Origin: Minisyncoccia bacterium
Lineage (GTDB): Bacteria > Patescibacteriota > Minisyncoccia > UBA6257 > JAAZHW01
Assembly: GCA_049720475.1 (NCBI GenBank)
Contig: JBNASH010000035.1
Coordinates: 84,015-148,014, forward strand
DNA length: 64,000 nt
Reading direction: 5' to 3'
The notes beneath the pieces were generated by a model, which saw only the letters and a program-made list of their open reading frames with translations, did not search any database and was not told the DNA's origin. Within the stretch, counting starts at the first letter, position 1. Each line of letters opens with the position of its first letter. Below are positions 3,307 through 49,393 of this stretch, piece after piece. Both the position numbers and the translations under genes were made by a program.

Positions 3307-3383
3307 GGTGGCCTTAGTTCAGCGGCTAGAACGCCTCGTTGTGGCCGAGGAGGTCAGGGGTTCAAATCCCCTAGGCCACCCCA
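3307..3383 (+). tRNA. tRNA-His (anticodon GUG) with encoded G-1 and encoded CCA
   Basis: Cloverleaf folded by hand: acceptor stem GTGGCCT/AGGCCAC, extra 5' G pairing with discriminator C73, anticodon loop TTGTGGC, T-loop TTCAAAT. Confidence 0.9.
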
Positions 3384-17906: not shown

Positions 17907-17929
17907 ATTTTTATTTTTATTTGTTCTTT

Positions 17930-19843: not shown

Positions 19844-19855
19844 AACCGGTTAATT

Positions 19856-21412
19856 TTAGTATTGTGGTGGTGGTGATGGCTCTCTGCCACCACAATATTT
19901 TTGGCAACTTGTTAAACTAGTAAAATCACCATTAGGATCTAATTCACAAAGTCCCTCAACTTCGTTACAACTATAGCGGTTTTCAGATGGTGGAGGTGAA
20001 GGTGTAATCGAAGGATAACAAACTCGACTACATGAATCATAATCACTATAACTGCCATTGGGATCAGCTACACAAATTTGCAATTCTGTATCGCATTTAA
20101 AACGAAGCGTGGATCCAGTACAAACTGCTTCACAGCTTTCTTTAGAAAAATATGGTCCATTAGCATCAATTTCGCAAACTTTTGATCCGCCATAAGTTTT
20201 ACAGGCATACCGCAAATTAAGCGATGGGCCAGAATCACCCTTTTCTGGCAAAGCCAACAATCCCTTACCATACCACTTACCACCAATTAACAATTCCTTA
20301 GCTGATTTTAACAAACGACTTATTAGTGCCTGAGCAATCATTTCTGAATAACCCTTAAGATCAGCTGAAGTTAGAAAATATGAGTCTGATTTCTCTAATT
20401 GATTGGTTAAAACTTTTGAAGTTAAATCTGATTTGGCTTCGCCCGGAATACTCACTACCTTTTCTACACAGATTTCTTGACCGGTAGCAGGATCTTTTTT
20501 GGTTTTAATACACCACTCTGTTGGTTTATAGCCACTCTGGGTTTTTTTCTCGGCTTCTTGCTGGGATTCAGATAATTCATTCTTTAAAGATTCTTGAGTC
20601 ATTAAATATGCTCCGAAGGCATTATTCCAGGGATAAAAGGATTCTTCAAAAGCAAGCCACCCGCCATTAGAAAAATTATCATAAAAAGATTCGATATTGC
20701 TTACTACCCTTGATAAAGTACAAGTTGGAAAAGGAGGTTTACCAGGCAAGGTTGTCCCAACTCTAACTAAATAACGAAACGGCTCGCACAACTCCGAAAA
20801 AGGTGAATTTTCGATAAATCGACCAAAAGCCTCATCCATCACATCGCCGAAAAATTGTCGCCAATTAGTAACAAACTGTGGATCGCCAGTTGTTCTTCCG
20901 CTAATCCAATCAACTGCGTTAGAAACCAAACGATCCATAAATGTTTTCACGGCAATTCTGAGCAATAATTTTGTCATTTCAGCCATTTTTGCTTTTAATG
21001 TTGCTTTCTTTTTAGCTACCCATTCTTTACACTGCTGGGTAGTATCGGCGCCACCAGTATTAATAATACATTCACCCGAAATAGCCGTCCCACCAATGCC
21101 CAAAAAACTCAACGTACGACCTAACATTTGACAAACTGGATTTAAAACTACGGACAAAGCGGTATTAATCCAGCTTGTTATTTTTTGATAAATACCCGTA
21201 GAACAAACCATCACCTCGCCCCAATATTCGGCTATATTCTCATATACCGCTGGCTCCTGTTCCAAAACCGAATCTAGATCTTTTGGCGAGGGCAAAGGAA
21301 CTTCGATTAAGGTTTCTGTTTGGGCTTTAACTTTTAAAGCATTAACTATGCCTTCCAAATTAAGAAGAAGAACAGCAATTAAAGTGATAATGGCAAAAGT
21401 TTTTTTACTCAT
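19856..21412 (-). CDS. secreted protein with three C-terminal Cys-rich ~30-aa repeats (C-x7-9-C-E/A/L-x-D-x-N-G-x-[YF]-x-[SD]-x3-S-C-x3-C) and a PPP tail
   Basis: Signal peptide MSKKTFAIITLIAVLLLNLEG. The repeats CKTYGGSKVCEIDANGPYFSKESCEAVC, CDTELQICVADPNGSYSDYDSCSRVC and CNEVEGLCELDPNGDFTSLTSCQKYC are read directly. Confidence 0.55.
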   Translation of the reverse strand: MSKKTFAIITLIAVLLLNLEGIVNALKVKAQTETLIEVPLPSPKDLDSVLEQEPAVYENIAEYWGEVMVCSTGIYQKITSWINTALSVVLNPVCQMLGRTLSFLGIGGTAISGECIINTGGADTTQQCKEWVAKKKATLKAKMAEMTKLLLRIAVKTFMDRLVSNAVDWISGRTTGDPQFVTNWRQFFGDVMDEAFGRFIENSPFSELCEPFRYLVRVGTTLPGKPPFPTCTLSRVVSNIESFYDNFSNGGWLAFEESFYPWNNAFGAYLMTQESLKNELSESQQEAEKKTQSGYKPTEWCIKTKKDPATGQEICVEKVVSIPGEAKSDLTSKVLTNQLEKSDSYFLTSADLKGYSEMIAQALISRLLKSAKELLIGGKWYGKGLLALPEKGDSGPSLNLRYACKTYGGSKVCEIDANGPYFSKESCEAVCTGSTLRFKCDTELQICVADPNGSYSDYDSCSRVCYPSITPSPPPSENRYSCNEVEGLCELDPNGDFTSLTSCQKYCGGREPSPPPQY

Positions 21413-29474: not shown

Positions 29475-29489
29475 CGACCGAATATTTAG

Positions 29490-29835
29490 TGGAGATGGCG
29501 GGAATCGAACCCGCGTCGGCGAAAAAGTTGATTTTCAAGCTTTCCAGACAATCAGCCGATTTATCTTAAGGGTTAATATTTAAAATCGGCAAAATTATTA
29601 ACCCCCGTCTTTGGTGTTAGGTTGCTTTTCTAGCCAAAGACACCTAGAAAAAGCCGAGCTCGATAATTTGACACCCTTCTGGCCTATCGAGCATCAGCCA
29701 GTCGGATGGGCTTATGCTAAAGCAAAAGCCAAGTTTCTGCTAAAATTGGCAGTTTTTCTTTCTCGCTTTTTTACGAGGTAGCGAACCCTCGGTCTGACTT
29801 GAAAATGCTTTTTCGCCTCGAGGCCAATCATCCCC
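29490..29835 (-). ncRNA. ssrA: tmRNA (ssrA)
   Basis: 5' end GGGGAUGAUUGG... (G3:U70 alanine identity pair) and a 3' tRNA-like end GCGGGUUCGAUUCCCGCCAUCUCCA, near-identical to E. coli ...GCGGGUUCAACUCCCGCCAGCUCCA. A tag-like reading frame ...GCCAAUUUUAGCAGAAACUUGGCUUUUGCUUUAGCAUAA is present. smpB lies immediately downstream. Confidence 0.85.
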
Positions 29836-33359: not shown

Positions 33360-33432
33360 TGCGCCTGGCGCGAATCGAACGCGCAGTCTTCGGCTCCGGA
33401 GGCCGACGCTTTATCCGTTAAGCTACAGGCGC
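33360..33432 (-). tRNA. tRNA-Arg (anticodon CCG)
   Basis: Hand-folded: acceptor GCGCCTG/CAGGCGC, anticodon stem TCGGC/GCCGA, loop CTCCGGA, T-loop TTCGATT. Confidence 0.85.
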
Positions 33433-33476: not shown

Positions 33477-34466
33477 TTAACGAACCGCTGGTTCTAATAA
33501 GCGCAAAGTTATTTCTTTTCTTGTTGCATCCAACTCAGCTTCGACACCAATAGGAATAGTCATTGGATAATAAATATCGCCAAAATCAACATTAGTTATA
33601 ACTGGAATTTTGTATGGCTTTAAAATTTCTTTCAGAATAGTGTTCAAGGTAAAATATTTTGGTCGGCCGAATTTCTTTTCTAATTCCCTATCGGCTGAAC
33701 CAACAGTAACATTTACCATTTTTCCAAAAATAATTCCCTTAACTCCTCCCTCCACAAAAAGACCCGCATTAATTAATCGAGTTAAAGCGCCTTCAATATC
33801 TTCGGAATAATCGCCATGCTCCTCAAAAAATAGAATGCTGTTAGAAACATCTGGAAAATAACGGGTGCCTAATAAATTAGCAAAACTAATTAGATTGCCA
33901 CCGACTAATTTACCGCGAGCACGTCCAGGTTTCAAAATCTGCCATTTACTCCGTTTCAAAAAGGTCGTACCTCCTTCAAAACAAATATTTTTAAAAGAAT
34001 TAATAGTATAACTATTAGCCTTCATAAAGAAATGTTCTATATTGAATCCATGAAAAGTAACAATTCTGCTCCGACGATAAATAGCATTTAATAAAGTAGT
34101 GCCATCAGAAAAACCAATTAAAACTTTTGGATTTTTACGGATTAAATTATAGTCCAACAGCGGCAAAACCTGATTGGCCAAATAACCGCCAACACTCATA
34201 AAAATAGCCCGGATATCTTTTCGAGCAAAAGCCTCATTTAAATCTTGAGCCCTCTCCTCTGGCGTCCCTGCCTTATACATTCCATAAACCACATCAACAT
34301 TTTTTGAGGTTTCAACCACAAAACCAAGACTTTCCAAAGTCTTTAAACCACGGCGAAAATGCTTGAGATTGGTTATGGGCTGAGAAGGAGAGACAACAAT
34401 AACCTTATCTCCTCTTCTCAACCTTTTTGGTTTTAACAGCGGTAATTGGCGAATTAATGTGATCAT
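33477..34466 (-). CDS. LD-carboxypeptidase (peptidase S66, LdcA/MccF-like)
   Basis: GDKVIVVSPS... and LIGFSDGTTLLNAIY (Ser nucleophile context), plus a C-terminal E/H region typical of S66. Confidence 0.75.
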   Translation of the reverse strand: MITLIRQLPLLKPKRLRRGDKVIVVSPSQPITNLKHFRRGLKTLESLGFVVETSKNVDVVYGMYKAGTPEERAQDLNEAFARKDIRAIFMSVGGYLANQVLPLLDYNLIRKNPKVLIGFSDGTTLLNAIYRRSRIVTFHGFNIEHFFMKANSYTINSFKNICFEGGTTFLKRSKWQILKPGRARGKLVGGNLISFANLLGTRYFPDVSNSILFFEEHGDYSEDIEGALTRLINAGLFVEGGVKGIIFGKMVNVTVGSADRELEKKFGRPKYFTLNTILKEILKPYKIPVITNVDFGDIYYPMTIPIGVEAELDATRKEITLRLLEPAVR

Positions 34467-34869: not shown

Positions 34870-36177
34870 TTATTCGCCTTTTTCTTTGGGTAATTGAACA
34901 ATAAAATCTTCAATAAGCATATTAATTCTTTCCTTTTCTTCTTTGGGTCGTTCTTTATAAAAATTTTTTAACAGCGAAACAAATTTTTTCATATCTATTT
35001 GATCATTTAATGAGGTTTTTGCTTTTTCAACAAATTGACTTTCGACAAATTGGTAATTTTCTTTATCTTTTCGCGAGCTGGCCTCTAAAAATCTAAGCCA
35101 ATATTTCAAAAATTCCCTCACTGACATTTTTTCTTCAGGCATAACTTCTTTCTCTTCGATTTTGTTTTCCTGCTTTTCTTCTTTTTCTTGTTTTTCTTCG
35201 TTAATTGCAAAATCTATTGGCATTCGATTAATTACCGCCACAAATTCATTTCTTTTTTGAATGTAGGGGTAAATGTTGTTATTTAATTTATCCAACTTTT
35301 TATTTACATCCATCATCTGCCGCTCTACAGCTGCTTTTTCAGAAACCAATTCCTTTTTTTCTTGACGAAGCATCTTTTCTATTTCCTTAATTGTCTCATC
35401 GTTTTTAATTTTTCGCTCGGACAACCCTGCTTTTAACAAAACTTGATACAAATCGTTTTTTTGCTTTTCTAATATCATTATCTGTTCCTCATGTTTAGCA
35501 TAAACTTTTTTCCATTTATTTTCTAAATCATTTTTGTGTTGATTTAAAATTTCTTTTCTTTTCTCCAATGGATCAATTTTTAATTGATAATAATCTATCA
35601 ATCGTTGAGCAACAATATTTCTTTTTTCTACATATGCATCTCTTTTATTTTTATTCATTTCAAATTTTGGAGAAATTTTCTCTTTTTCGAGTAAAAGCTT
35701 CTCTCTACTTTCTCTCATTCTCTTCAATTGTTTATCAATACCTTCGACTGGTATATTGTTTTTTAAAGCATTTTCTCTATATTCACTTAACTCTTTTTCT
35801 GATTGATTAAAAATATTGATGCAATAATCAATCCGATCGAGATTGCTCTTAAAATTTGATAGTTTCTTTTCATAAACATCGATTCTTTTTTGATTCAACG
35901 CAATTTCTAATTTAGCAACTAATCTATTAGTGACTGGATTATTATAAAGTCCTTCATAAACTTTTTTCGCAATTTCTTTCCCTTTATCAGATAGTTTTTC
36001 AAATAATGACTTACTATCATCGGTTATGACGCTCATCAAATCAATTTCAACTCTTTTTTTCAATTCTTCCGGCAGAGTTTCCTCTTTGTTTGTCAATTTT
36101 TTTAACATATTTGGATCTAGTTTTTCAAATTTATTGCTCATATATTTAATTATACAACAAAAAGAGAAAAAAATCAA
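34870..36177 (-). CDS. K/E-rich coiled-coil protein (435 aa)
   Basis: Long predicted coiled-coil; no catalytic motif. Confidence 0.5.
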   Translation of the reverse strand: MIFFSFCCIIKYMSNKFEKLDPNMLKKLTNKEETLPEELKKRVEIDLMSVITDDSKSLFEKLSDKGKEIAKKVYEGLYNNPVTNRLVAKLEIALNQKRIDVYEKKLSNFKSNLDRIDYCINIFNQSEKELSEYRENALKNNIPVEGIDKQLKRMRESREKLLLEKEKISPKFEMNKNKRDAYVEKRNIVAQRLIDYYQLKIDPLEKRKEILNQHKNDLENKWKKVYAKHEEQIMILEKQKNDLYQVLLKAGLSERKIKNDETIKEIEKMLRQEKKELVSEKAAVERQMMDVNKKLDKLNNNIYPYIQKRNEFVAVINRMPIDFAINEEKQEKEEKQENKIEEKEVMPEEKMSVREFLKYWLRFLEASSRKDKENYQFVESQFVEKAKTSLNDQIDMKKFVSLLKNFYKERPKEEKERINMLIEDFIVQLPKEKGE

Positions 36178-36334: not shown

Positions 36335-36407
36335 TGGGCGCAGATGGATTCGAACCATCGACCCCAGACTTATAAGGTCTGTGCTCTAACCGCTGAGCTA
36401 TGCGCCC
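36335..36407 (-). tRNA. tRNA-Ile with anticodon UAU (AUA-decoding)
   Basis: Hand-folded: acceptor GGGCGCA/TGCGCCC, D-arm GCTC-AGCGGTTA-GAGC, anticodon stem CAGAC/GTCTG, loop CTTATAA (34-36 = TAT), T-arm GATGG-TTCGAAT-CCATC. The body resembles tRNA-Ile. Confidence 0.8.
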
Positions 36408-36466: not shown

Positions 36467-38287
36467 TTATTGGTTATTTTTCATTAATTCCTCAAAATCT
36501 TCTTTTTCTATAATTTCCTTTTCTAACAAAGTTTTAACGAGAGCCTCCATTTGTTTTTTGTGGTTTTTAATTATTTTCTCTGATTGTTTAACCGCCTCAT
36601 TAATCAATCTTTTAACCTCATTATCAATTTCGATTGCGGTTTTTTCTGAATAATTCTTCTCGGCAGTAATTTCGCGGCCTAAAAAGATTAGTTCTTCTGT
36701 TTTGCCAAAAGTAATCGGGCCCAATTTTTCAGACATTCCATATTTAACAATCATTTTCCGGGCTAATTCCGAAGCTTCTTTCAAATCATTAGCCGCTCCT
36801 GTTGAAACATCACCCAAATAAATTTTTTCAGCCACATAACCGCCCATTAATACTGCTAATTCAGCTAAAAATTGTTTTCTGGTTTGCAATCTTCTATCTT
36901 CCAGCGGCATTTTTAAAGTGTAACCACCGGCTTGGCCGCGGGCAATAATAGAAATTTTCTGAACTGGATCGGCCTCAGGCGAATGGTAAGCAACAAGAGC
37001 ATGACCAGCTTCATGATGAGCAATAATTTGTTTTTCCTTTTCAGAAATTATCCGACTGCGACGCTCTGGCCCTAAAACAACTTTTTCAATTGATTCTAAA
37101 AGTTCGCTTTGGGTAATTTCTTTTTTATTTCTTCGAGCAGCCAAGATAGCCGCTTCATTAACTAAATTAGCTAAATCAGCGCCAGAAAAACCAGGAGTTC
37201 TTTCGGCAATTCTTCGCAAAAACACATCTTTGGCCAAAACTTTATCACGACAGTGAATCTTTAAAATTTCTTCTCTTTCTTTCAAATCCGGCAAATCCAA
37301 AACAATTCTTCGATCAAAACGACCAGGTCTTAGAAGAGCTGGGTCTAAAATATCAGGACGATTAGTCGCGGCAATCACAATAACATTCGTCTCACGATCA
37401 AAACCATCCATTTCTACTAAAATTTGGTTTAAGGTTTGTTCTCTTTCATCATGTCCTCCACCCAAACCAGCGCCTCGTTCCCGGCCAACCGCATCAATTT
37501 CATCAATAAACAAAATTGATGGCGCTGCTTTTTTAGCAGTCGCAAAAGCATCTCTAACGCGGCTGGCGCCAACACCAACAAAAAGCTCCACAAATTCAGC
37601 GCCCGAAATGTGGAAAAATGGAACATTAGCCTCACCAGCCACCGCTCGCGCTAAAAGTGTTTTTCCGGAACCCGGTGGCCCCATCAATAAAACGCCACGC
37701 GGTATTTTTGCGCCCAAATCAAGAAACTTTTTTGGATTTTTCAAAAACTCAACCACTTCTTTTAATTCCTGCTTTGCCTCTTCTAAACCTGCCACATCTT
37801 TAAAAGTCACTTTATCTTTTGGCGTAGAAATTTTAAGATTAACCCTGCCAAAAGAAAAGGCCTGTCCAACTCCCTTTTGGGCTTGTTTGTTCATCCAGAG
37901 GAAGAAAAGCAAAATTAAACCCAAGGGTAAAATAGTTTGAAGCAACAAAGCTCCCCAAAATAACCAATCCGAAGAAGTTTTAATATTAATATTTACTTTA
38001 CTCAATTGTTCATTGCTTACGCCAAGATTTTTTAATGTTTCGATAATACTCACTCCATCCTCTTTATTTGTTTTTAAAACTTCATCTTTAGTTGTTTTAG
38101 CAACCACCTCATTACCTTGCGCTGTTATTTCTTTTATTTCTTCTTTTTGAATGAGAGAAACCAATTCATTCAAAGAAATCTTTTTTTCTTTGATTGGCAT
38201 TGCTCCACTAAAAAGATAGGAAAAAATAGAACTTAAAATCAAGAAAATAATAATACCTAGAGCTAGATTTTTTAATAAGTTTCTCAT
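36467..38287 (-). CDS. ftsH: ATP-dependent zinc metalloprotease FtsH
   Basis: Two N-terminal TM helices, AAA Walker [12 protein letters not shown], and a zinc motif HEAGHALV. Confidence 0.9.
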
Positions 38288-38379: not shown

Positions 38380-39249
38380 CTAAGCCAAGGACTTTATTTT
38401 TTGATCAAAAAAATCCAAAATCTCTCTGAAATTATGCTCATCTAAATGTTTAAAGGTGTTTATTTTTTTCTCTACTTCTTCTCTGCTCATAAAAAAATCC
38501 TTATTGTTTGCTTTCCCATTTTTTATTAATTCTAAAAGCTCTCTAAATTTAGCTTGGATTTGATGAGCTAAAGAAACATCAATACTTTTTTCAGTAATTA
38601 TCCAGCCAATCTCTTCAAAATGGAAAATTCGATTTTCATCAATCCGAAAATTTTGACCATCATAAGCAACTAAAGAATGGGGTGGTATAGAAGCAGATGA
38701 AGATAAACGAACACCAGGCTCAATATATACTTCATTTGCTATTTCACAAGGAGCAACAATTGTTACATTAGCACCAATAAAACACCTGTCTCCAATTTTT
38801 GTTTTTGAATCATTATAACCATTATTAGCAGCAATCACTACATGAGGCTGAAAAACGGTTTTTTCACCAACAAAAGCATCTTCCAAATAACAACCGGCAT
38901 TAATGTTTGTTTCGTCTTCAATAAAACTAGAAAAAACAAAACTATGATGCTTAATTTTGACGCATTTGCCAAACTTACTCAGCAATAATGTTGAATAATA
39001 AACAATCATTTCCTCTTTAGCTTCAATATCGCGCAGTTGGGAATGAATAATCAAACTTTCTGCGCCAATTTTAACGTTTCTCAAATGAGAGAAAAAAATT
39101 CGACAATCGGAAGAAATATTAATATCTTCTTCTAAATGACTTGGTGGCAAAATAACTGAATGAGGACCAATAACACAATTAATCTCTGGCAAACAAAAAG
39201 GAACATTTTTGGTTTGAATAATATCATCCACATAGTAAAATGCACTCAT
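38380..39249 (-). CDS. left-handed beta-helix (hexapeptide-repeat) protein, function unknown
   Basis: Repeated [LIV]-G-x-x-x-x hexapeptide-like units (IGANVTIVAPCEIANEVYIEPGVRL). Confidence 0.45.
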   Translation of the reverse strand: MSAFYYVDDIIQTKNVPFCLPEINCVIGPHSVILPPSHLEEDINISSDCRIFFSHLRNVKIGAESLIIHSQLRDIEAKEEMIVYYSTLLLSKFGKCVKIKHHSFVFSSFIEDETNINAGCYLEDAFVGEKTVFQPHVVIAANNGYNDSKTKIGDRCFIGANVTIVAPCEIANEVYIEPGVRLSSSASIPPHSLVAYDGQNFRIDENRIFHFEEIGWIITEKSIDVSLAHQIQAKFRELLELIKNGKANNKDFFMSREEVEKKINTFKHLDEHNFREILDFFDQKIKSLA

Positions 39250-39355: not shown

Positions 39356-42300
39356 TTATTCGCTTTCTTTTTTATAAACCACCAGATTTAAATCATTGTC
39401 ATTCTTCAATTGCCAACCATTTCCATTCGGCAAATAAATTTTTGAACCCATAATATCCGGATGTACTTTGTAATTAACTGAACAATTAGCAGTATTTGTA
39501 TCAACCTCAGAAAAATCAAGCTTTAAAGCATAATAATGATTTTTCTCCAAATAAACCGGTTGATCAAAGCGCCAACTTAATATACCAAAATAACCATCCC
39601 AACTATAAGTAATTGCTGGGTCAATCGAATTACCTAACAATGGCCCCAGATTTCCATTAACTTGATTGGGTGAAATGGCATAGATCTGCGCTTTGATTGG
39701 AAAAGCGCAATAATGATAGTATGCTGGCAATTCTATTCTATCAACATAACCGCTCTTATTGGCAATAAAACTGGAAAAAATAACTCGCGGACCATACATT
39801 GTTGAAGCCCATTCAACGGCATTTGTCTCAATAACATTTTTTGGATCTAAAGAATACAAAACATTTTCAGGGTAATCACTTTGCTCGGCATCAACATAAA
39901 AATCAGAATTATTCTTATCACCAAAATAATACCACTCAGAAGTATAACCTGCTAAATCAATTGCCCGCGCTCGCCAGTGATAAGCATTGTCTTCTAAATT
40001 AGAAACTAAAACGGTAGCAACATCACCTGAATAAACAAAATTACTTTCAAAAAGATGGGGATCATTTTGAGCAATATTATTATCAAAATCTTCATTTCGC
40101 GGTCTCACTTCAATCTGCAATTTCACCGGCCAATCAGTATAATTAAAAACTCTGGCCGAAAAACTTACCTCAGGATTATAAATCGTCTCACCTTCTAATA
40201 AATCGTCTCCAGTTACTTTCTGAGATAATTCAGCAATTCTATTTTTATATCCCGTAAAAGAAAAAATTGTTTTATCACTTCCCCAAACTTCCCTGCTTTC
40301 TCCTGGGAAATAAGCCCAACAATTTCCATTAGGCGCATTATCAATATAAAATTGCGCTAAATATTGATGGTTTTTTCTTAAAACAATTGCCCCATCTACA
40401 AATTCCCAGCTGAAATAACCTGGTGTCCAATAAGATTTTAACTCAACCGCATTGCGAGAAACCCCTAATTCTTTTTGGTTATCATTTTCCATTTCAAAAA
40501 TTTTAACTTTAACTGACAAAGCACAGTTGAGACTTTTAGCCGCCGCCACCACATTTTTTAAGTATCCGCTTTCATCGGCCGTAAAAATTATTGAAAAGTT
40601 ACCTAGTCCATAATTATTTGCTAATTGAAAATCGGAATAATCTGACGAATTAGTAAATAAATAAAAATTAACTGGCTCAGAAATAACAATTTCTTTGGGT
40701 TGAACAATTTTAATAATAGCTGGCTTTTCTTTTTTCATTCCATCTTTATCTTTTAACACAATACCGACATAATATTCTTCAGCCGAATAAGGATTAAGAG
40801 TGATCTCAAAATTATTATTTTGGAAATCAAAATTTTTATTTAGAATCTCGGCTTTGGTTATATTAGAAACACTAAAATTTTTTAAATCTTCCTCAAGCAA
40901 ACTATAATAAACTTCCAAATCAGAAAAAGTTAGTAATTGTTCTGCTGGCAAAATAGAAAATGATAAGCGAATTTGACCGGCATTATCAAATATATATTTT
41001 AAATTTGATACTTCCAAAGCCTGGCGTGGTTCCGGTAAACTTAATGAGTTTTGCGGTTGAGGATCGCGCACAATAAAATCAGTCATTGAATCGCTATCAT
41101 AACCATTGCCCATAAATTGATCCATACCAATTGTCATTGATTCAACCGTTGAATCTTCTTCTGCTTTTCTTTCTAAACTACTACCTTCTGGACAAGAATT
41201 TTTTGAATAACTAATTTCATCAATGATATTTTTTTCATTATCAATTAAAAAGATATGGTAACTATTATCGAGTGTTGGATTGGGCAATGAATATGATAAC
41301 CTTAAAATATCAGCTTGAACATTGTTGTAATTTAAAGCATCATAACTATTAAAACCAATTAGCAAAAATCCGTGGGCTTTAATAATATTTAAATCATTTT
41401 TGCCAATTTTCAGTAAGGAAGTAGTAGTGGTACTGTTATCTTTTGCTAATTGCAATGACCAATCAATTAAATTAATATCGATATCATTAGGGTTGTATAA
41501 TTCAATGAATTCTTTACCCACATCGGTACCTTTAGCATCATAAAGAATTTCTGAAATCAAAATTTTTGGTTTTTGCGGGTTGGGAGTAGTATCAGGAAGA
41601 GTTAGAACAACAGGGCTATTTTCTGATTTAGGTGTTCCCAAAATGCCATTATTTTCTTCACCAGAATAAGTATGCCAATTTAAATCATCGCCTCTTTCCA
41701 TTGATCTCTTTGTGATTTTATCACCAGCCGGCCAATTTCCGTTTTCATCAGTTTTTGCTTCATCAATTAAATTACAATTGGAATCAAAAAGTTTTAAAGA
41801 CTCGTTGGTATCATTAATTGAACCAGTAAAAATTAAATCAGCTGCAATATTTGGTACGGCTTCATCATTTGTTCTTTCTAAAAGCAACGGTTCATTTGGC
41901 GCTAAAATTTTTTCTGGAAAAATAATTTTGATCTGGCCATCTTGATCTAATAATTGCCAATTTTTTAAATTGATCGTTTCAGTGGAAATATTTTTTAATT
42001 CAATCCACTCGTCAGCAGAAGAATGAGAGGTGCCCATCCAAGCAATTTCATTAATAATAACCTTTGGATTGTCAGAAATAATTGTGGTTGAAGTAGCGCA
42101 ATAAACGATCGGTGTTGGCGTTGGAGTTGGTGCGGGCGTAGAAGAAGTAGAACCGCTATAATAAATTTCTGGCGTTGAAGAGGGTGTTGGAGTAATTAAG
42201 GGTGTCAGATTAGTGGAGGGGGTGGGCGAAAAACTAGGAAGTGGAGAAGGGGTTAAAAATGGCGTTGAAGAAGGAGTTGGCGATGGCGAAAGTGTTGGTG

Positions 42301-43558
42301 TCAAACTCGGACTAGGACTAAAAATTATTTCTTGAGATAATTCTAACAACGGCGTGGCGGAAGGCAAAATAGAAACCTCATGAGATTGTTCAATTGTTTG
42401 GGATTGATTAATTGCTAAAGGCAAAGCTGATGGTGTTGATTCAATGGCAACTTCTTGTTTTTTCTCTTCGTCCATTAAACCCAGCGCTCTTTTAATATTT
42501 TCAATTGTTGTGGCGATTAAAGTTTTTCTCATTCGTGATAAAAAGTTTTGATCATTTTTATATTTTTCCACCTCTTGAAAAAATAAATTCAAAACACCAG
42601 CTCCTGATAAAACTGCTTTTTTAGATAGGTGAGACCAATAATCAGAATAAATAAGTGGATCGTCAATGGTAATATTTTGTGACAATGCTAAAAAAACACT
42701 GCCGGCTCCTGCTTTTTTAACTAAAAAATATTTACCCATATCATCTTCGTTAATTGAATACCAATAAATTTCCTTCTTTTCAACTTCTAAATAATTCCAC
42801 TCGGGCTGTTTATAGCCACTCTGAACACCAATCGTATCCTGACTATAAAAATGCGTATTAGTATAGAAAGCTAAATCATTAAAATAATCATTTAAATTAT
42901 TAAATACCAAGGGTTTTTTATTTTTTAATTGAGAAGCGACATCAATATTTTCTGGTGTAAATTGCGCCGCATATTTTTCATAACCATCACCAGTTAAATG
43001 ATGATCATTTCTAGTATGAGCTGGCACAGCCATATCTTCCAAAAGATGCAAAACATGGCCCAAATCAATAAAAGCTTCTTTTTTATTGCCAAGAATATAA
43101 TTATAAACGGCCTTTTCCCAAGTATGAACGGCTAAAATATCAACAGCACTTTTAGTTAATTGAGCAACAGGATTAAGCGCAGCATTACGATAAGCTTCTC
43201 CTAAAAAAGTTGCCTGAGCATAAGAATTCTGAGCCCAATCTTTAGCGGTTAAAATAAGGGGTTTTAAAATAGTTAAAAATGGTGTTAAAGCACCTGCATT
43301 AATCTCTCCAGATAATCCCCTTTGATAAATTGGATCATAAAAATGATTCAAAGTTCTCGCCAATGGATCATCTTCTTTAATGCTTCCCTCTATTAACCAT
43401 TGTTTTTCTTGTTCATTAATGCGAAATTGGGCGAAGTTATTGTAAAATTTAACAATTTCTGAAGTTAAAGCGGGGTGAGTTGTTAAATTATCGTAAGCCA
43501 ATAATTTAAAAGGCAAAATTAATAAAAATAAAATAATCAAAAATCTCTTTTTAAACAT
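39356..43558 (-). CDS. 1400-aa secreted protein: N-terminal zinc-dependent phospholipase C/P1-nuclease-like domain, Pro/Thr/Ser linker, two lamin-tail-domain-like modules, large C-terminal beta-rich region
   Basis: Signal peptide MFKKRFLIILFLLILPFKLLA. Motifs resembling zinc PLC (LNHFYDP; AQATFLGEAY; GHVLHLLEDMAVPAHTRNDHH). A linker PSPSLTPTLSPSPTPSSTP.... LTD-like KVIINEIAWMG...ADEWIELKNIS and KILISEILYDAKGTDVGKEFIELYNPN. Confidence 0.65.
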   Translation of the reverse strand: MFKKRFLIILFLLILPFKLLAYDNLTTHPALTSEIVKFYNNFAQFRINEQEKQWLIEGSIKEDDPLARTLNHFYDPIYQRGLSGEINAGALTPFLTILKPLILTAKDWAQNSYAQATFLGEAYRNAALNPVAQLTKSAVDILAVHTWEKAVYNYILGNKKEAFIDLGHVLHLLEDMAVPAHTRNDHHLTGDGYEKYAAQFTPENIDVASQLKNKKPLVFNNLNDYFNDLAFYTNTHFYSQDTIGVQSGYKQPEWNYLEVEKKEIYWYSINEDDMGKYFLVKKAGAGSVFLALSQNITIDDPLIYSDYWSHLSKKAVLSGAGVLNLFFQEVEKYKNDQNFLSRMRKTLIATTIENIKRALGLMDEEKKQEVAIESTPSALPLAINQSQTIEQSHEVSILPSATPLLELSQEIIFSPSPSLTPTLSPSPTPSSTPFLTPSPLPSFSPTPSTNLTPLITPTPSSTPEIYYSGSTSSTPAPTPTPTPIVYCATSTTIISDNPKVIINEIAWMGTSHSSADEWIELKNISTETINLKNWQLLDQDGQIKIIFPEKILAPNEPLLLERTNDEAVPNIAADLIFTGSINDTNESLKLFDSNCNLIDEAKTDENGNWPAGDKITKRSMERGDDLNWHTYSGEENNGILGTPKSENSPVVLTLPDTTPNPQKPKILISEILYDAKGTDVGKEFIELYNPNDIDINLIDWSLQLAKDNSTTTTSLLKIGKNDLNIIKAHGFLLIGFNSYDALNYNNVQADILRLSYSLPNPTLDNSYHIFLIDNEKNIIDEISYSKNSCPEGSSLERKAEEDSTVESMTIGMDQFMGNGYDSDSMTDFIVRDPQPQNSLSLPEPRQALEVSNLKYIFDNAGQIRLSFSILPAEQLLTFSDLEVYYSLLEEDLKNFSVSNITKAEILNKNFDFQNNNFEITLNPYSAEEYYVGIVLKDKDGMKKEKPAIIKIVQPKEIVISEPVNFYLFTNSSDYSDFQLANNYGLGNFSIIFTADESGYLKNVVAAAKSLNCALSVKVKIFEMENDNQKELGVSRNAVELKSYWTPGYFSWEFVDGAIVLRKNHQYLAQFYIDNAPNGNCWAYFPGESREVWGSDKTIFSFTGYKNRIAELSQKVTGDDLLEGETIYNPEVSFSARVFNYTDWPVKLQIEVRPRNEDFDNNIAQNDPHLFESNFVYSGDVATVLVSNLEDNAYHWRARAIDLAGYTSEWYYFGDKNNSDFYVDAEQSDYPENVLYSLDPKNVIETNAVEWASTMYGPRVIFSSFIANKSGYVDRIELPAYYHYCAFPIKAQIYAISPNQVNGNLGPLLGNSIDPAITYSWDGYFGILSWRFDQPVYLEKNHYYALKLDFSEVDTNTANCSVNYKVHPDIMGSKIYLPNGNGWQLKNDNDLNLVVYKKESE

Positions 43559-43592: not shown

Positions 43593-44159
43593 TTACATAC
43601 TTTTTATTTTCCAAACACCGGAATATTCATTTAATTCCATTTGCATAATATAATCTGCCATTCCGTCTTTGCCCATAATCACAAATTCATAGGTTGTTGT
43701 TAGTGGAGATTGAATGGGAGAAGGTTTGAATTGCTTAGTTAAATTAATTAATTCTTGTAATTTCCCCTTTTCTACCTGTATTTTTAATGCATCTTCCCAT
43801 TTTTTTCTACTTTGATTCTCATCCATCGCAAAATATTTAGCGGCTAAATCAATGTCGCCTTTTTCTAAAGCTTCAATAAACATATTTAAAGTTTCTTGAG
43901 GTGTTTTGCCACCATAAGTATCTTCGCGAAAAACTTGATAATATTGCTCCAATCCTTTATAAAACTGTTCCGTCGCTTTGCGTACCCGATACATATCAAT
44001 CACCATCTGCACTCTTTCTTTTAAAATAGAAAAGCCGCCGCCAATGCCAAATAAAACAAAAATAACAACCGCCAAAACACTTATTACTATTAACAATAGA
44101 TGTTTTCGTTTTGATTTTTGATTTGGTAAAGGCGGTGTGGTTGGAATTGGTTGATTCAT
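43593..44159 (-). CDS. membrane-anchored hypothetical protein
   Basis: N-terminal TM LLLIVISVLAVVIFVLFGIGGG, then a soluble domain. Confidence 0.5.
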   Translation of the reverse strand: MNQPIPTTPPLPNQKSKRKHLLLIVISVLAVVIFVLFGIGGGFSILKERVQMVIDMYRVRKATEQFYKGLEQYYQVFREDTYGGKTPQETLNMFIEALEKGDIDLAAKYFAMDENQSRKKWEDALKIQVEKGKLQELINLTKQFKPSPIQSPLTTTYEFVIMGKDGMADYIMQMELNEYSGVWKIKSM

Positions 44160-44232: not shown

Positions 44233-46668
44233 TTACACCACAAAATTAATTAAACGATTGGGAACAAAAATAATTTTTTTAATTTTAGAATTCTTTAAAA
44301 GGTCGCCAATTTTAGGATGAGCCAAAACAATTTTTTCTGCTTCTTTTTGAGGGATATTAAAAGGCGCACTAATTTTAATTTTTAATTTTCCATTAATTTG
44401 GACGAGTAATTCAAATTGTTTTTGTTGCAAATATTTCTCTTCAAATTTCGGCCATTTTTCTTCGTGAATAGATTTTTTATGTCCTAATAATTGCCAAATT
44501 TCTTCAGCCAGAAAAGGAGCAAAAGGCGCTAAAAGTTTTGCGTATGTCTCAAGATGCTTTTTCGCAATTTTAATATTTTTCTCTTGCATTTTATTAAGGC
44601 ATTCCATTAAAGCGCTAATGGCTGTGTTATAACGCAAATCCTCAATATCATCGGTCACTTTCTTAATTGTCCGATGTATTATCGCTTCAATCTCACTATC
44701 ATTTTTTTCTTTTTCTTTCCAACGCAACTGATTTTGATAAAAATTCCAAATACGATTAACAAATCGGAAAATACCGTTGATACCATCAGGATTCCACGGC
44801 TTCATATCTTCGAGTGGTCCCATAAACATAATATACATTCTTAAAGTATCAGCGCCATATTGTTTTACAATATCATCAGGATTAACAACATTGCCAAAAG
44901 ATTTTGACATTTTTCTATTATCAGCGCCCAAAATAATACCTTGATTAACAAGTTTTTTAAATGGCTCTGGCGTTGAAACCAAACCTAAATCATAAAGAAA
45001 CTTGTGCCAAAAACGAGCATAAAGCAAATGAAGAACAGCGTGTTCTTTGCCGCCAATATATAAATCAACTGGCATCCATTTTTTCTCTTTCTTCAAATCA
45101 ACAAATTTTTTGGAATTTTTTGGATCAATATACCGCAAATAATACCAACATGAACCCGCCCATTGCGGCATTGTATTAGTTTCTCTTTTTGCCGGCCCGC
45201 CACATTTTGGACATTTTGTATTAATCCAACTTTCAATAGCTGCTAAAGGCGACTCACCAGTACCAGTGGGTTCATATGACTTAACTTTCGGCAAAGTTAA
45301 AGGTAGATCTTTTTCTGAAAGAGGAATAACGCCACATTTTGGACAGTGAACAATTGGGATTGGCTCGCCCCAATATCTCTGACGCGAAAAAATCCAATCA
45401 CGCATTTTATAATTCGTCACCTTTTTGGCACCAACATAATTAGCAATTTTTTCTTGAGCGCTTCGATTATCTAAACCATCAAATGGCCCTGAATTAATAA
45501 GATAGCCATCGCCTGTATAAGCATTTTCCAAATAATGTTCTTTGCCATCAGGACTAATAACTTCTATAATATCGAGTTTAAATTTCTTGGCGAATTCGAA
45601 ATCTCTTTCATCATGCGCCGGCACAGCCATAATTGCTCCCGTGCCATAATGAATTAAAACGTAATCGGAAATCCAAACTGGGATTAATTTTTGATTTGTT
45701 GGATTAACCGCCCAAACACCTTTTAATTGAACACCGGTTTTAGTTTTTGCCAAATCCGTTCGTTCTAATTCTGATTTTTGAATTGCTTCTTCAATATATT
45801 TCTCAACTTCGTAAATATTTTCAATATAATTTTTTAATTCATTAATTATCGAATGTTCAGGGGCTACCACTAAATAAGTTGCGCCAAATAAAGTATCAAT
45901 GCGAGTGGTAAAAACTTCAATTTCTCCAATTTTATAATTATTGTTATCTTTTAAAGTAAATTTAATTTGATGGCCAACGGATTTCCCTATCCAATTTTTT
46001 TGCATTTCTTTAATATCCTCCGGCCAATCAAGCAAAGGCAAATCCTTCAATAATTTCTCGGCATAAGCAGTAATTTTGAGCCACCATTGACGAAGCATTT
46101 TTCTTTGAACAGGCGTGCCACAACGATCACAATTCCCTTCAACTGTCACTTCTTCATTTGCTAAACCCGTCTTACAAGAAGGACAGAAATTAATCGGCGC
46201 TTCTTTTTCATAAGCCAAACCCTTCTCAAAAAGTTTCAAAAATATCCATTGGGTCCATTTGTAATATTTGGGATCAGTTGTATTAATCTCGCGCTTCCAA
46301 TCATAAGCAAATCCCATTCTTAATAATTGTTTTTTAAAAACATTAATATTTTTTGCGACAATTTCTGCCGGATGTTTTTTAACTTTAATTGCATAATTTT
46401 CAGCCGGCAAACCAAAGGCATCCCATCCCATCGGATGAAGCACATCATAACCCTGCATTTTTTTATAACGTGCATAAATATCGCTGGCTGTATAATTTTC
46501 AACATGCCCCAAATGCAATCCCTGACCCGAAGGATATGGGAACATATCTAAAATATAAAATTTCTTTTTGGGTGAGTCGCCAACTTGATATGTTTTAAAA
46601 TTATTTCTCTCCCATTTTTTTAACCATTTATTCTCAATTTTTTGAAAGGGGTATTTAAAAACTTTCAT
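44233..46668 (-). CDS. leuS: leucyl-tRNA synthetase
   Basis: HIGH-region (PYPSGQGLHLGHV), KMSKS, and a long editing domain. Confidence 0.9.
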   Translation of the reverse strand: MKVFKYPFQKIENKWLKKWERNNFKTYQVGDSPKKKFYILDMFPYPSGQGLHLGHVENYTASDIYARYKKMQGYDVLHPMGWDAFGLPAENYAIKVKKHPAEIVAKNINVFKKQLLRMGFAYDWKREINTTDPKYYKWTQWIFLKLFEKGLAYEKEAPINFCPSCKTGLANEEVTVEGNCDRCGTPVQRKMLRQWWLKITAYAEKLLKDLPLLDWPEDIKEMQKNWIGKSVGHQIKFTLKDNNNYKIGEIEVFTTRIDTLFGATYLVVAPEHSIINELKNYIENIYEVEKYIEEAIQKSELERTDLAKTKTGVQLKGVWAVNPTNQKLIPVWISDYVLIHYGTGAIMAVPAHDERDFEFAKKFKLDIIEVISPDGKEHYLENAYTGDGYLINSGPFDGLDNRSAQEKIANYVGAKKVTNYKMRDWIFSRQRYWGEPIPIVHCPKCGVIPLSEKDLPLTLPKVKSYEPTGTGESPLAAIESWINTKCPKCGGPAKRETNTMPQWAGSCWYYLRYIDPKNSKKFVDLKKEKKWMPVDLYIGGKEHAVLHLLYARFWHKFLYDLGLVSTPEPFKKLVNQGIILGADNRKMSKSFGNVVNPDDIVKQYGADTLRMYIMFMGPLEDMKPWNPDGINGIFRFVNRIWNFYQNQLRWKEKEKNDSEIEAIIHRTIKKVTDDIEDLRYNTAISALMECLNKMQEKNIKIAKKHLETYAKLLAPFAPFLAEEIWQLLGHKKSIHEEKWPKFEEKYLQQKQFELLVQINGKLKIKISAPFNIPQKEAEKIVLAHPKIGDLLKNSKIKKIIFVPNRLINFVV

Positions 46669-46719: not shown

Positions 46720-48303
46720 TTATTGGTAAGAAATCAAGTTGGTTAATAAACTGACACCACTCATTTCTATTGGAATTGGCAAACCCATTAATTCCAAAAT
46801 TGTTGGCGCAATATCACACAATGAACCGGTCGTTGTGCCCTCCATTTCCTTAATTTGTTCTTCGGTTCGGGGTATTTTTAACTTAAATCTTTCATCAACC
46901 AAATAAAATGGCACTGGATTACTATCGTGATGTGTTTCTTTTTCGCCAGTTAAAGGATCATATAATCTTTCGGCATTGCCATGATCAGCGGTTACAATTA
47001 ATGTAGCACCAATTTTTTGAGCTACCTCATAAACTTTGGTTAATTGTTGATTAAGAATTTTTATCGCTTCAACAACGGCATTATAATTGCCCGTATGCGC
47101 AATAGTATCTGGATTAGCATAATTAACAGCAATAAAATCATAAACCCCCTCCATCATGGCCGCAATTAATCTTTCTGTAATTTCCGGCGCGCGCATAGCC
47201 GGATATTCGTCTGGATGCGGTGTTTCTTTCGAAGGAATTAAAACTCTAAATTCATCAGGAAAAACTTTATCTGTTAAACCATTAAAAAAGTAAGTTAGAT
47301 GATAATACTTTTCTGTTTCAGCAATTTTTAATTGTTTTAAATTGTGTTTACTTATTTCGGCAGTTAATGATGTCTCAATTTTTTCCGGATAATATGCAAC
47401 ATCAACATTAAAACTTTTATCATACTGAGTCATTGTCGTAATATGAATATTCAATTTTTTTCTAGGGAAATAGCTGAATTCAGGAAGAATAAAAGCGCTG
47501 CTTAATTGACGGATGCTATCTTCTCGAAAATCAAAAAATATCACACCATCGCCATCTTTAATAATTGGTAAATTTTGATCATCTTCAATAATTAATGTTG
47601 GCTCAATATATGGATCGGTTAATTTTTTCTCATTATAGAAATAATCAAAAACTTCTTGATAGTTTTTTACTTTCCGACCCTCTCCATTAACTAGCAAATT
47701 ATAAACTCGGCTAGTTAAATCCCAATTTTTTGAACGATCCAGCGCATAATAGCGACCGGACAAGCTTCCTAATTTTCCTACGCCAATTTTTTTAGCGTCG
47801 TTTAAAAACCGTTCTACTAATTCTTTGCCTGATTTCGGCCTACTATCACGACCATCAGTAAAGAAATGAAAAATTACCTTCTGCAACTGTTTTTTTGCTG
47901 CCAATTGTAATAAGGCCAAAATATGCTCATAAGCGCTGTGGGCGTGCGATTCTGATAATAACCCCAGACAATGAAGTGTAGAACCATTTTTAAGAACAAA
48001 ATCAAATGTTTTATTTAAAGCTTCATTTTTAAAAAAATTACCATTGCGAATCTCCAAACTAATTCGCGGATAATACTGATAAATAATTTTACCAATCCCC
48101 ATCGTTAAATGGCCAACTTCACTATTGCCTGCTTCCCCCCATGGCAAACCAACAGCAATACCACTTGCCTGCAAAGATGTCGCCGGATAATTATATTTAA
48201 AATTTTCAATAATTTCCGGTTTAACTTTGTAAATGGGATTGGAATCATCTCGAGCTCCAATGCCCCATCCATCCAAAATAATCAAAACTACATTTTTTCT
48301 CAT
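46720..48303 (-). CDS. gpmI: 2,3-bisphosphoglycerate-independent phosphoglycerate mutase
   Basis: N-terminal ILDGWG and metal-binding motifs (TADHGN). Confidence 0.9.
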   Translation of the reverse strand: MRKNVVLIILDGWGIGARDDSNPIYKVKPEIIENFKYNYPATSLQASGIAVGLPWGEAGNSEVGHLTMGIGKIIYQYYPRISLEIRNGNFFKNEALNKTFDFVLKNGSTLHCLGLLSESHAHSAYEHILALLQLAAKKQLQKVIFHFFTDGRDSRPKSGKELVERFLNDAKKIGVGKLGSLSGRYYALDRSKNWDLTSRVYNLLVNGEGRKVKNYQEVFDYFYNEKKLTDPYIEPTLIIEDDQNLPIIKDGDGVIFFDFREDSIRQLSSAFILPEFSYFPRKKLNIHITTMTQYDKSFNVDVAYYPEKIETSLTAEISKHNLKQLKIAETEKYYHLTYFFNGLTDKVFPDEFRVLIPSKETPHPDEYPAMRAPEITERLIAAMMEGVYDFIAVNYANPDTIAHTGNYNAVVEAIKILNQQLTKVYEVAQKIGATLIVTADHGNAERLYDPLTGEKETHHDSNPVPFYLVDERFKLKIPRTEEQIKEMEGTTTGSLCDIAPTILELMGLPIPIEMSGVSLLTNLISYQ

Positions 48304-48937: not shown

Positions 48938-49393
48938 AAGATCAGAAAACCCTGCCGGTGGGCAGGATTTTCTGATCTTTGTTTCTTCAATAAGAATAAG
49001 CCGAATTCTGTACCCATAAAGGGCGGCAACCATTTATCTTGACGCGGTATTGCTACCACGTTCAGAGCGATCTACCTGTCGCTTGCGCGACAACTTGATC
49101 TTGCACCAGGAAGGGTTTGCCACCTCTAATTGTCACCAATTAGAGTTGGGAGCTCTTACCTCCACTCTTTTCACCCTTGGTCACCTCAAAAAATACTGAG
49201 GTGGCCGGTATAGTTTCTGTGGCACTTTCCCTAATCACGTTTAAACGTGATCGGTTGCGGTTAGCAACTTCCTTCTTCTGCTATCTTCCTAAGAAAATAG
49301 CAGGGTGTTCGGACTTTCCTCTGTTGATGTTTATTATTGATGATTGCTCATCTCAAAACACCAACAGCAGTTGCCTACTTATTGAAGAAACTG
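48938..49393 (-). ncRNA. rnpB: RNase P RNA (bacterial type, minus strand) including 3' terminator hairpin 48938..48980
   Basis: Reverse complement contains the P4 strands GAGGAAAGTCCGAACACC (cf. E. coli GAGGAAAGUCCGGGCUCC) and GGGTACAGAATTCGGCTTA (cf. ACAGAACCCGGCUUA). Also GGGAAAGTGCCACAGAAA, GGTAAGAGCTCCC, and a P1 pairing AGTTTCTTCAATAAG/CTTATTGAAGAAAC. A long perfect hairpin + T-run sits at the 3' end. Confidence 0.75.

Follow-up and report, generated by a model that had tools for sequence, protein, structure and literature searches.

A secreted 1400-residue protein with a phospholipase C-like head, from a Patescibacteria-wide family encoded behind a small partner gene

In this work we analysed a 64,000-nucleotide (nt) stretch of a Minisyncoccia bacterium genome (contig JBNASH010000035.1 of assembly GCA_049720475.1, positions 84,015 to 148,014 of the forward strand; hereafter the window), and in particular a gene for a multidomain protein of 1400 amino acids (aa). 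The open reading frame (ORF), which has an ATG start and is read at 39356..43558 on the minus strand, was described in an earlier note made from the letters of the sequence; it is present as claimed there and begins with a signal peptide, and each of the motifs quoted in that note (LNHFYDP, ATFLGEAY, HVLHLLEDMAVPAHTRNDHH, INEIAWMG...DEWIELKN and ISEILYD...EFIELYNPN) is found in the protein. According to its structure model, the N-terminal head of this protein has the fold of the zinc-dependent phospholipase C (PLC) family. The head is followed by a linker, by two lamin-tail domains (LTDs) and by four predicted beta-sandwich modules, six modules of a binding type in all, and a small partner gene lies directly upstream. 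The features of the two genes are the following.

43593..44159, minus strand: partner gene, 188 aa, ending 34 nt before the start of the 1400-aa gene
43496..43558, minus strand: signal peptide, residues 1-21, MFKKRFLIILFLLILPFKLLA, with a predicted signal peptidase I cut between A21 and Y22
42449..43495, minus strand: zinc phospholipase-C-like head, residues 22-370 (AlphaFold2 model, Foldseek, family profile, invariance)
42074..42448, minus strand: Pro/Ser/Thr-rich linker or stalk, residues 371-495 (composition)
41639..42073, minus strand: lamin-tail domain 1, residues ~496-640 (PF00932, 54.1 bits, E=2.3e-14, segment scanned alone)
41159..41599, minus strand: lamin-tail domain 2, residues ~654-800 (PF00932, 51.9 bits, E=1.1e-13, segment scanned alone)
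41036..41158, minus strand: conserved segment after the second lamin-tail domain (...MTIGMDQFMGNGYDSDSMTDFIVRDPQPQNSLS), residues 801-841, kept in the relatives P0074 and P0080
40691..41035, minus strand: first FN3/Ig-like beta-sandwich, residues 842-956 (approximate boundaries; seven strands in the AlphaFold2 model)
40238..40690, minus strand: jelly-roll-like module A, residues 957-1107, with the conserved Cys pair C1012/C1080
39884..40237, minus strand: FN3-like module (...YHWRARAIDLAGYTSEW...), residues 1108-1225 (phmmer repeats)
39359..39883, minus strand: jelly-roll-like module A', residues 1226-1400, with the conserved Cys pair C1284/C1359

The head and its predicted zinc site

Residues 1-370 have no Pfam or NCBIfam match, even at E<=10. 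The head has 73 homologues in the database, nearly all of them from Patescibacteria metagenome-assembled genomes, and some of these carry precomputed matches to PF00882 (Zn_dep_PLPC). In a Pfam scan of 36 aligned homologues, 22 matched PF00882 weakly (best E=7.9e-6), whereas S1-P1_nuclease (PF02265) was never matched by any of them. A profile of the 36 sequences retrieved PLCs alone from PDB (E from 1.7e-6 to 4.5e-6, with Listeria PlcB 8cqm at E=1.7e-6 and the phosphatidylcholine-preferring PLC, or PC-PLC, of Bacillus cereus, 1ah7/2fgn, at about 4e-6), as did a profile of 80 sequences (E of about 2e-4), and no S1/P1 nuclease came up at E<=10 in these PDB profile searches. The AlphaFold2 (AF2) model of residues 22-370 (predicted local distance difference test, pLDDT, 86.7; predicted template modelling score, pTM, 0.88) has an all-alpha fold into which a sheet of three strands is inserted, and a long helical hairpin on its C-terminal side. 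When this model was compared with PDB by Foldseek, ranks 1-17 were all chains of alpha-toxin, PC-PLC or PlcB, with a probability of 1.0; the top matches include alpha-toxin 1olp, B. cereus PLC 1ah7 and Listeria PlcB 8cqm, and the target-normalised template modelling (TM) score against single-domain PLCs is 0.57-0.61. The single nuclease in the list, the S1/P1-type 3w52, has E=4.5 and a probability of 0.08. The AF2 model and Foldseek thus both give the head the all-alpha PLC fold, and we place it in the PLC branch rather than in the S1/P1 nuclease branch, because the PDB profiles match PLCs only and because Foldseek sets PLCs at a probability of 1.0 against the E value obtained with 3w52. The earlier note had spoken of a head resembling both PLC and P1 nuclease. 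The PLC part of this description is borne out by the profiles and by the AF2 and Foldseek results, while membership of the S1/P1 nucleases was dropped, as neither Pfam nor the PDB profiles gave a match and Foldseek gave only 3w52.

Metal ligands were mapped with HMMER alignments of the family profile to Listeria PlcB (8cqm_A) and B. cereus PLC (2fgn_A), and invariance was scored in alignments of 80-81 sequences, made of the 1400-aa protein and relatives at 35-65% identity. The seven zinc-ligand side chains of PLC, H14, D55, H69, H118, D122, H128 and E146, all fall on invariant residues of the family, which in the 1400-aa protein are H28, D63, H72, H171, D175, H181 and E194, respectively. H72 lies within the HFYDP motif, which is common to the head family and B. 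cereus PLC and reads HFYNP in PlcB. When the predicted mature N-terminal residue, Tyr for Trp, is counted, eight of the nine PLC ligand positions align with invariant residues. The invariant residues comprise the candidate metal ligands Y22 (through its main chain), H28, D63, H72, H171, D175, H181, H187 and E194 and, beyond these, E62, R68, Y74, D75 and R183. As regards the conservation of the catalytic His and Asp residues, a point raised in the earlier note, all the candidate His and Asp ligands are invariant in these sequences. That note had named two outcomes that would overturn it, zinc ligands that do not align and LTDs without HMM support, and neither of them came about. A degenerate, non-catalytic head was considered and dropped, because the candidate ligand residues are invariant throughout the family alignments.

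The N-terminal signal peptide is the sole hydrophobic segment of the 1400-aa protein, in which we found neither an LPXTG motif nor a C-terminal anchor or transmembrane helix; from its sequence, the protein is without a membrane or wall anchor of its own. Among 80 relatives, position -1 of the predicted cleavage site is A, G or S in 78, position -3 is small or aliphatic (V/A/S/I/L/T), and position +1 is Tyr in all 80. As Tyr22 comes directly after this conserved signal-peptidase pattern, the predicted mature N-terminus is an invariant aromatic residue where PLC has Trp1. Zinc is ligated in PLC and P1 nuclease by the main chain of this Trp (its amino and carbonyl groups), and the main chain of Tyr22 might play the same part in the head. 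No propeptide lies between the predicted signal peptide and the predicted catalytic N-terminus of the family.

We consider that there is about an even chance that the 1400-aa protein of this ultrasmall, Paceibacteria-type bacterium is a Sec-secreted multidomain extracellular enzyme whose PLC-like head acts on a phosphodiester, phospholipid being the favoured substrate because all sequence and fold comparisons point to the PLC rather than to the nuclease branch. We read the trinuclear site of the head as intact, with one His relocated and Tyr in place of Trp. In the mechanism that we propose, the signal-peptidase cut would expose the amino and carbonyl groups of Tyr22, and these groups, with H28, D63, H72, H171, D175, H181, H187 and E194 as further ligands, would form a trinuclear zinc site resembling those of B. 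cereus PLC and alpha-toxin. The head would then hydrolyse a phosphodiester, most likely the glycerol-phosphate bond of phospholipids in the envelope of a host or neighbour cell, and this cleavage would release diacylglycerol and the phospho-head group. Binding to a surface, either the host's or that of the producing cell itself, would be the task of the LTDs and of the C-terminal modules that vary between lineages, and the partner protein might anchor the enzyme, accept its lipid product or, by inhibiting it, protect the producer (immunity). Such a mechanism would fit the Patescibacteria, which are unable to make lipids and nucleotides and live on other cells. The role suggested in the earlier note, a surface factor that degrades lipids or nucleic acids, is plausible.

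A Patescibacteria-wide family and its partner gene

Relatives of the head were collected by a scan that combined a sequence pattern with tblastn and used one genome per species. At least 396 loci among these species-representative genomes encode a relative of the head. The labels of the best 80 are of Patescibacteria type (Paceibacterota, Lloyd-, Yanofsky-, Harrison-, Brenner-, Nomura-, Niyogi-, Campbell-, Colwell- and Azambacteria, and others); some loci are labelled 'uncultured Saccharibacteria' or 'Gammaproteobacteria' by an automated binning project, and we regard these labels as unreliable. Judged from its sequence relatives, the head defines a Patescibacteria-wide family, and the 1400-aa ORF is a genuine gene and not a chance ORF, because the head has 73 homologues and this number of loci and because the C-terminal region has full-length homologues. 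A look-up in public assemblies gave no exact match to the 1400-aa protein on record, and a phmmer search of PDB with the entire protein returned chance matches only. Complete genes of the family usually encode 1000-1800 aa. Relatives are named 'hypothetical protein' or 'lamin tail domain-containing protein' in the databases, and we found no description of this family in the literature on LTDs or PLCs in the Patescibacteria, the Candidate Phyla Radiation (CPR) or the Parcubacteria. Most head homologues in the database are fragments that end at contig ends, within or just after the Pro/Ser/Thr linker or the first LTD, and P0002, for example, stops 82 nt from the end of its contig. This observation suggests that genes of the family often break metagenome assemblies and that the full architecture is under-represented in public protein sets.

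A homologue of the partner gene lies directly upstream, on the same strand, in all of the 80 family loci that hold upstream DNA, and the single locus that lacks it starts at a contig end. Between the partner gene and the head gene the median gap is -5 nt, with frequent overlap of the two reading frames, and no other neighbour is conserved among the family loci. The two-gene cassette had gone unmentioned in the earlier note. The partner protein combines a run of basic residues (KSKRKH) with a single transmembrane helix (about residues 20-44, from hydropathy) and a domain of about 110 aa that, given this layout, should face outwards (extracytoplasmic) and in which D80, G83, P87, T90, A106 and Y109 are invariant. 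Its Pfam matches, DUF4878 (E=0.008) and MecA_N (E=0.006), are both under the cut-off; in the partner family, DUF4878 is matched by 12 of 61 members, again below threshold (best E=4e-4), and a PDB profile search gave weak matches to de novo NTF2 proteins, to 4qan and to the N-domain of PBP5 (E from 0.01 to 0.5). Given that the DUF4878 and MecA_N matches are sub-threshold and the PDB profile matches weak, an NTF2-like fold of the partner domain is plausible, not established.

The constant pairing of the two genes also bears on the purpose of the enzyme. The cassette might be a toxin-immunity pair used for antagonism, in which the head damages the membranes of competitors or of the host, the C-terminal modules set the target range and the partner is the immunity protein that shields the membrane of the producer; the chemistry would overlap with that of the PLC reading and the purpose would differ. 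The co-location of a predicted outward-facing membrane protein with the head gene in 80 of 80 loci, often with overlapping frames, is in favour of such a pair, and NTF2-like domains are a known class of immunity proteins. The catalytic N-terminus would moreover be made by the signal-peptide cut alone, and the producer, having no propeptide to rely on, would therefore need self-protection. The C-termini differ between lineages, as the target range would. Nevertheless, it is the head that is conserved and the C-terminus that varies, whereas in typical polymorphic toxins the toxin domain is the variable part. The loci inspected contain a single copy each and no arrays of orphan immunity genes, and the matches behind the NTF2-like assignment of the partner remain below threshold. 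We therefore hold a primary role in antagonism to be unlikely.

Lamin-tail domains and C-terminal modules

The linker that follows the head (residues 371-495) is 20% P, 21% S and 18% T, in agreement with the PTS-rich stalk of the earlier note. It is not a DNA tandem repeat according to a tandem-repeat search, and similar low-complexity linkers are found at the same place in homologues. PF00932 (LTD) is the only Pfam family detected in the whole protein, over two stretches (E=7e-27, 94.4 bits together), and NCBIfam gave no match to the C-terminal region either. Each of the two segments scanned alone exceeds the Pfam gathering score of 34.3 bits (54.1 and 51.9 bits), so the two LTD-like modules described earlier can safely be called LTDs; Zn_dep_PLPC and S1-P1_nuclease, which had been named beside LTD as Pfam families to look for, are not matched in the 1400-aa protein. 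The first LTD is of a subtype, 'INEIAWMGT...DEWIELKN...LER', that is typical of the family and comes after the head in most members, and Pfam LTD is present in 31 of 36 full-length family proteins. In these 36 proteins the C-termini differ by lineage, with Beta_helix in 6, PKD in 5, NosD in 4, a beta-propeller in 2, and also fn3 and Big.

The C-terminal region had been described as about 700 aa of unknown fold. It is rather about 560-600 aa long, and an AF2 model built from six sequences is all-beta (pLDDT 81.1) and, together with the alignment, splits the region into four predicted beta-sandwich modules in the order FN3-like, jelly-roll-like, FN3-like, jelly-roll-like. The conserved segment of residues 801-841 lies outside both structure models. 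Module A is duplicated within the protein as A' (blastp E=1e-7, 33% identity), and a ten-copy alignment of the two has invariant W, F, L, Y and C columns. Among the family loci, modules A/A' are found in the closest relative, L002, only; module A' is 56-60% identical to its counterpart in P0074 and P0078. Module A has no Pfam relative, and it is without a solved sequence relative, as a PDB profile search with A/A' gave only chance ferritin matches (E of about 0.1). Neither the C-terminal region nor the A/A' profile retrieved a homologue in word-indexed searches. For the region itself, an exhaustive phmmer search yielded 604 hits, the majority limited to residues ~1119-1231. These hits include P0074 (1239 aa; 48% identity over 550 aa), which shares its head and C-terminus with the 1400-aa protein and has a single LTD; P0080 (1398 aa), with the full layout of head, linker, two LTDs and C-terminus; and P0101, with the same C-terminal triplet behind an unrelated N-terminus. 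Counterparts of residues 842-956 are present in all three.

The FN3-like module of residues 1108-1225, with the motif YxWRxRAxDxxGxxSxW, is a very widespread repeat (P0075-P0223) that occurs elsewhere in tandem, with up to 29 copies in one protein, in proteins of 4000-6000 aa. Residues 842-956 and 1108-1225 of the 1400-aa protein have no Pfam match, and the homologous repeats of P0075 and P0091 have sub-threshold Pfam matches to fn3, Ig_Rha78A_N and Pur_ac_phosph_N. When the four-domain model was used for fold searches, the matches were generic multi-beta-sandwich proteins only, mostly chains of FN3 and Ig domains, with low TM-scores: surface glycan-binding protein B (SGBP-B), the Ig-like domains of PrgB, the baseplate protein of phage phi812, and phage FN3 and tail proteins. 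As these matches are generic, the C-terminal model points to binding or spacer modules, with no specific ligand.

The numerous beta-sandwich modules of the protein, its long stalk and its variable C-terminus would also suit an adhesin or surface fibre in the main, with a non-catalytic head that acts as a structural cap or binds a ligand. The fold matches of the C-terminal region are indeed to adhesins and phage fibres, and epibiotic CPR bacteria typically have giant surface proteins (PMC8080830). This view is difficult to reconcile with the head, in which every candidate ligand and the N-terminal residue are invariant at the identity levels given above; such invariance is expected of an active site and not of a scaffold, and we think it very improbable that the head is a mere cap.

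Substrate, role and genomic surroundings

Several points weigh against the PLC reading. The PF00882 gathering score is not reached, with no match in the whole protein or in the isolated head (E<=10), and the identity of the head to characterised PLCs is ~12-16%. The alignment of the zinc ligands, on which the earlier note had staked its reading, holds for the seven side chains, all of them invariant, and breaks down at PLC His142, four residues before the Glu, where the family has Gly (consensus GSPYE). A relocated ligand probably stands in for His142, namely the invariant His187, which lies in the motif HTRNDxH seven residues before E194. The predicted mature N-terminal residue is Tyr instead of the Trp of PLC, and Trp is, to our knowledge, N-terminal in all characterised PLC and P1 enzymes. 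The invariant R68 and R183, which have no counterpart in PLC, might point to a more anionic substrate. The function of the partner and its NTF2-like fold assignment are weakly supported, and the activity and metal site of the head are predictions from sequence and model. Finally, P0028 couples the head, through a long charged linker, with a staphylococcal-nuclease domain, and LTDs are best documented beside extracellular nucleases (ExeM, PMC6085458; DNase I family, PMC4486849). As the HMM threshold and the His142 position both fail, we file the head outside PF00882, in a branch of the PLC/P1 superfamily that is divergent and had not been described before.

Some of these points would suit an enzyme acting on nucleic acids, the chief alternative. 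PLC and S1/P1 nucleases have one common fold and one common zinc site, and the head could be a surface nuclease or 3'-nucleotidase that uses its trinuclear zinc to degrade extracellular or host DNA and RNA for nucleotides, with the LTDs binding nucleic acid or the surface. In that case Arg68 and Arg183 could bind backbone phosphates, and the fusion of the head to a nuclease domain in P0028 also speaks for this reading. The LTDs would be at home in such a protein, as deletion of the LTD of Shewanella ExeM slows DNA degradation in vitro (PMC6085458) and DNase I family enzymes also bear LTDs (PMC4486849). The Patescibacteria are without nucleotide synthesis, and an uptake route besides competence is expected in them (PMC11665869). 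We nevertheless find this substrate rather unlikely, since the PDB profile searches gave no S1/P1 nuclease at E<=10, 3w52 (E=4.5, probability 0.08) stands against 17 PLC chains at 1.0, the homologues match PF00882 only and never S1-P1_nuclease, and the HFYDP motif is of the PLC type.

The preferred assignment, a PLC-like head favouring phospholipid, is also the one to which the closest known system leads, that is, the zinc PLCs of PF00882 (B. cereus PC-PLC 1ah7, Listeria PlcB 8cqm, and the N-domain of alpha-toxin, 1ca1/1olp). The head has in common with them the all-alpha fold, the seven aligned ligand side chains, the HFYDP and HxxxDxxxPxH motifs, secretion, and an N-terminal aromatic residue that, as predicted for the head, is exposed by processing. 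It differs from them by its Tyr N-terminus, by Gly at the place of His142, by the invariant His187, by the additional invariant residues E62, R68 and R183, and by its greater length (~100 residues more), an inserted beta-sheet and a long helical hairpin. In contrast with alpha-toxin there is no PLAT/C2-like domain, the head being joined to a stalk, LTDs and beta-sandwich modules in proteins of 1000-1800 aa, and the family has an obligatory small partner gene, which the zinc PLCs do not. The S1/P1 nucleases (PF02265; P1, S1, plant bifunctional nucleases such as 3w52, and the Leishmania surface 3'-nucleotidase/nuclease) belong to the same superfamily and use trinuclear-zinc chemistry, but the head has no profile match to them, a marginal fold match (E=4.5) and motifs of the PLC type. 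The spacing from Y22 to H28 (+6) is nearer to that of Trp1 and His6 in P1 nuclease (+5) than to that of Trp1 and His14 in PLC. If the role were one of salvage, the surface 3'-nucleotidases of purine-auxotrophic parasites would offer a functional parallel.

Two other systems resemble the protein in its layout. Shewanella ExeM, which is composed of an LTD, an OB-fold region and an EEP nuclease, is likewise a secreted protein with a phosphoesterase-type domain and an LTD, the latter thought to aid substrate or surface binding (PMC6085458). In the 1400-aa protein, by contrast, the enzyme domain is N-terminal and PLC-like rather than EEP, there are two LTDs, and the C-terminal hydrophobic anchor of ExeM is missing. 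The giant surface proteins of Vampirococcus lugosii are also large and secreted, with modules of Ig, FN3 and jelly-roll type and a presumed role in host contact (PMC8080830); they differ by the lack of a conserved catalytic-type head and of a fixed two-gene organisation. The zinc phosphoesterase chemistry, the LTDs, and the FN3 and jelly-roll modules are thus already known, and what is new here is the variant active site, as read from the alignments, the phylum-wide architecture and the obligatory partner gene.

The Patescibacteria lack lipid, nucleotide and amino-acid synthesis, and no mechanism of lipid uptake or breakdown has been identified for them, according to a 2024 review (PMC11665869). 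CPR lipids apparently come from neighbouring bacteria (PMC7242380), and for Vampirococcus it has been suggested that a secreted phospholipase serves to attack the host and to obtain lipids (PMC8080830). The cassette might be the missing device for acquiring host lipids: the head, displayed on the surface, would clip the head groups from host phospholipids, the membrane-anchored, possibly NTF2-like partner would capture diacylglycerol or another lipid product and feed it to the membrane of the epibiont, and the C-terminal modules would set host specificity. The NTF2-like fold is used by lipid carriers such as MlaC. We regard this scheme as unlikely; if it is true, the cassette supplies the lipid-acquisition route so far missing for the Patescibacteria. 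More generally, as the Patescibacteria are a large share of bacterial diversity and the family is widespread yet unannotated, it is a concrete candidate for how these organisms attack or harvest the host envelope, and a possible means of obtaining lipids or other phosphate esters from the host cell. The zinc-PLC/P1 superfamily would gain a branch with a Tyr N-terminus and a proposed relocated His ligand.

In the window, which is AT-rich (~30-37% GC), the neighbours of the 1400-aa gene are housekeeping genes on the same strand.

36467..38287, minus strand: FtsH
38380..39249, minus strand: hexapeptide-repeat protein
44233..46668, minus strand: LeuRS
46720..48303, minus strand: iPGM

Synteny with LeuRS and iPGM was considered as a trait of the family and dropped, being kept in the closest relatives only. 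A scan for promoters and terminators gave counts no higher than in shuffled sequences, which makes it uninformative in such AT-rich DNA.

Further away in the window, a TraG/VirB4-like ATPase (Pfam P-loop_TraG, E=3e-28) is encoded at 13722..15521 on the minus strand. Large ORFs without Pfam match adjoin it at 16647..21412 on the same strand, among them ORFs of 637 aa (17930..19843) and 518 aa (19856..21412), and together they may form a type IV secretion-like or conjugation-like cluster. An ORF of 435 aa with a TTG start, at 34870..36177 on the minus strand, has no Pfam match; on one side of it lies an LD-carboxypeptidase gene (33477..34466), on the other a tRNA gene (36335..36407) and, further on, FtsH. 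Structural RNA genes were identified at Rfam gathering scores: a class A RNase P RNA at 48982..49386 and a tmRNA at 29487..29835, both on the minus strand, and three tRNA genes, namely the one beside the 435-aa ORF (minus strand), one at 33360..33432 (minus strand) and one at 3308..3380 (plus strand).

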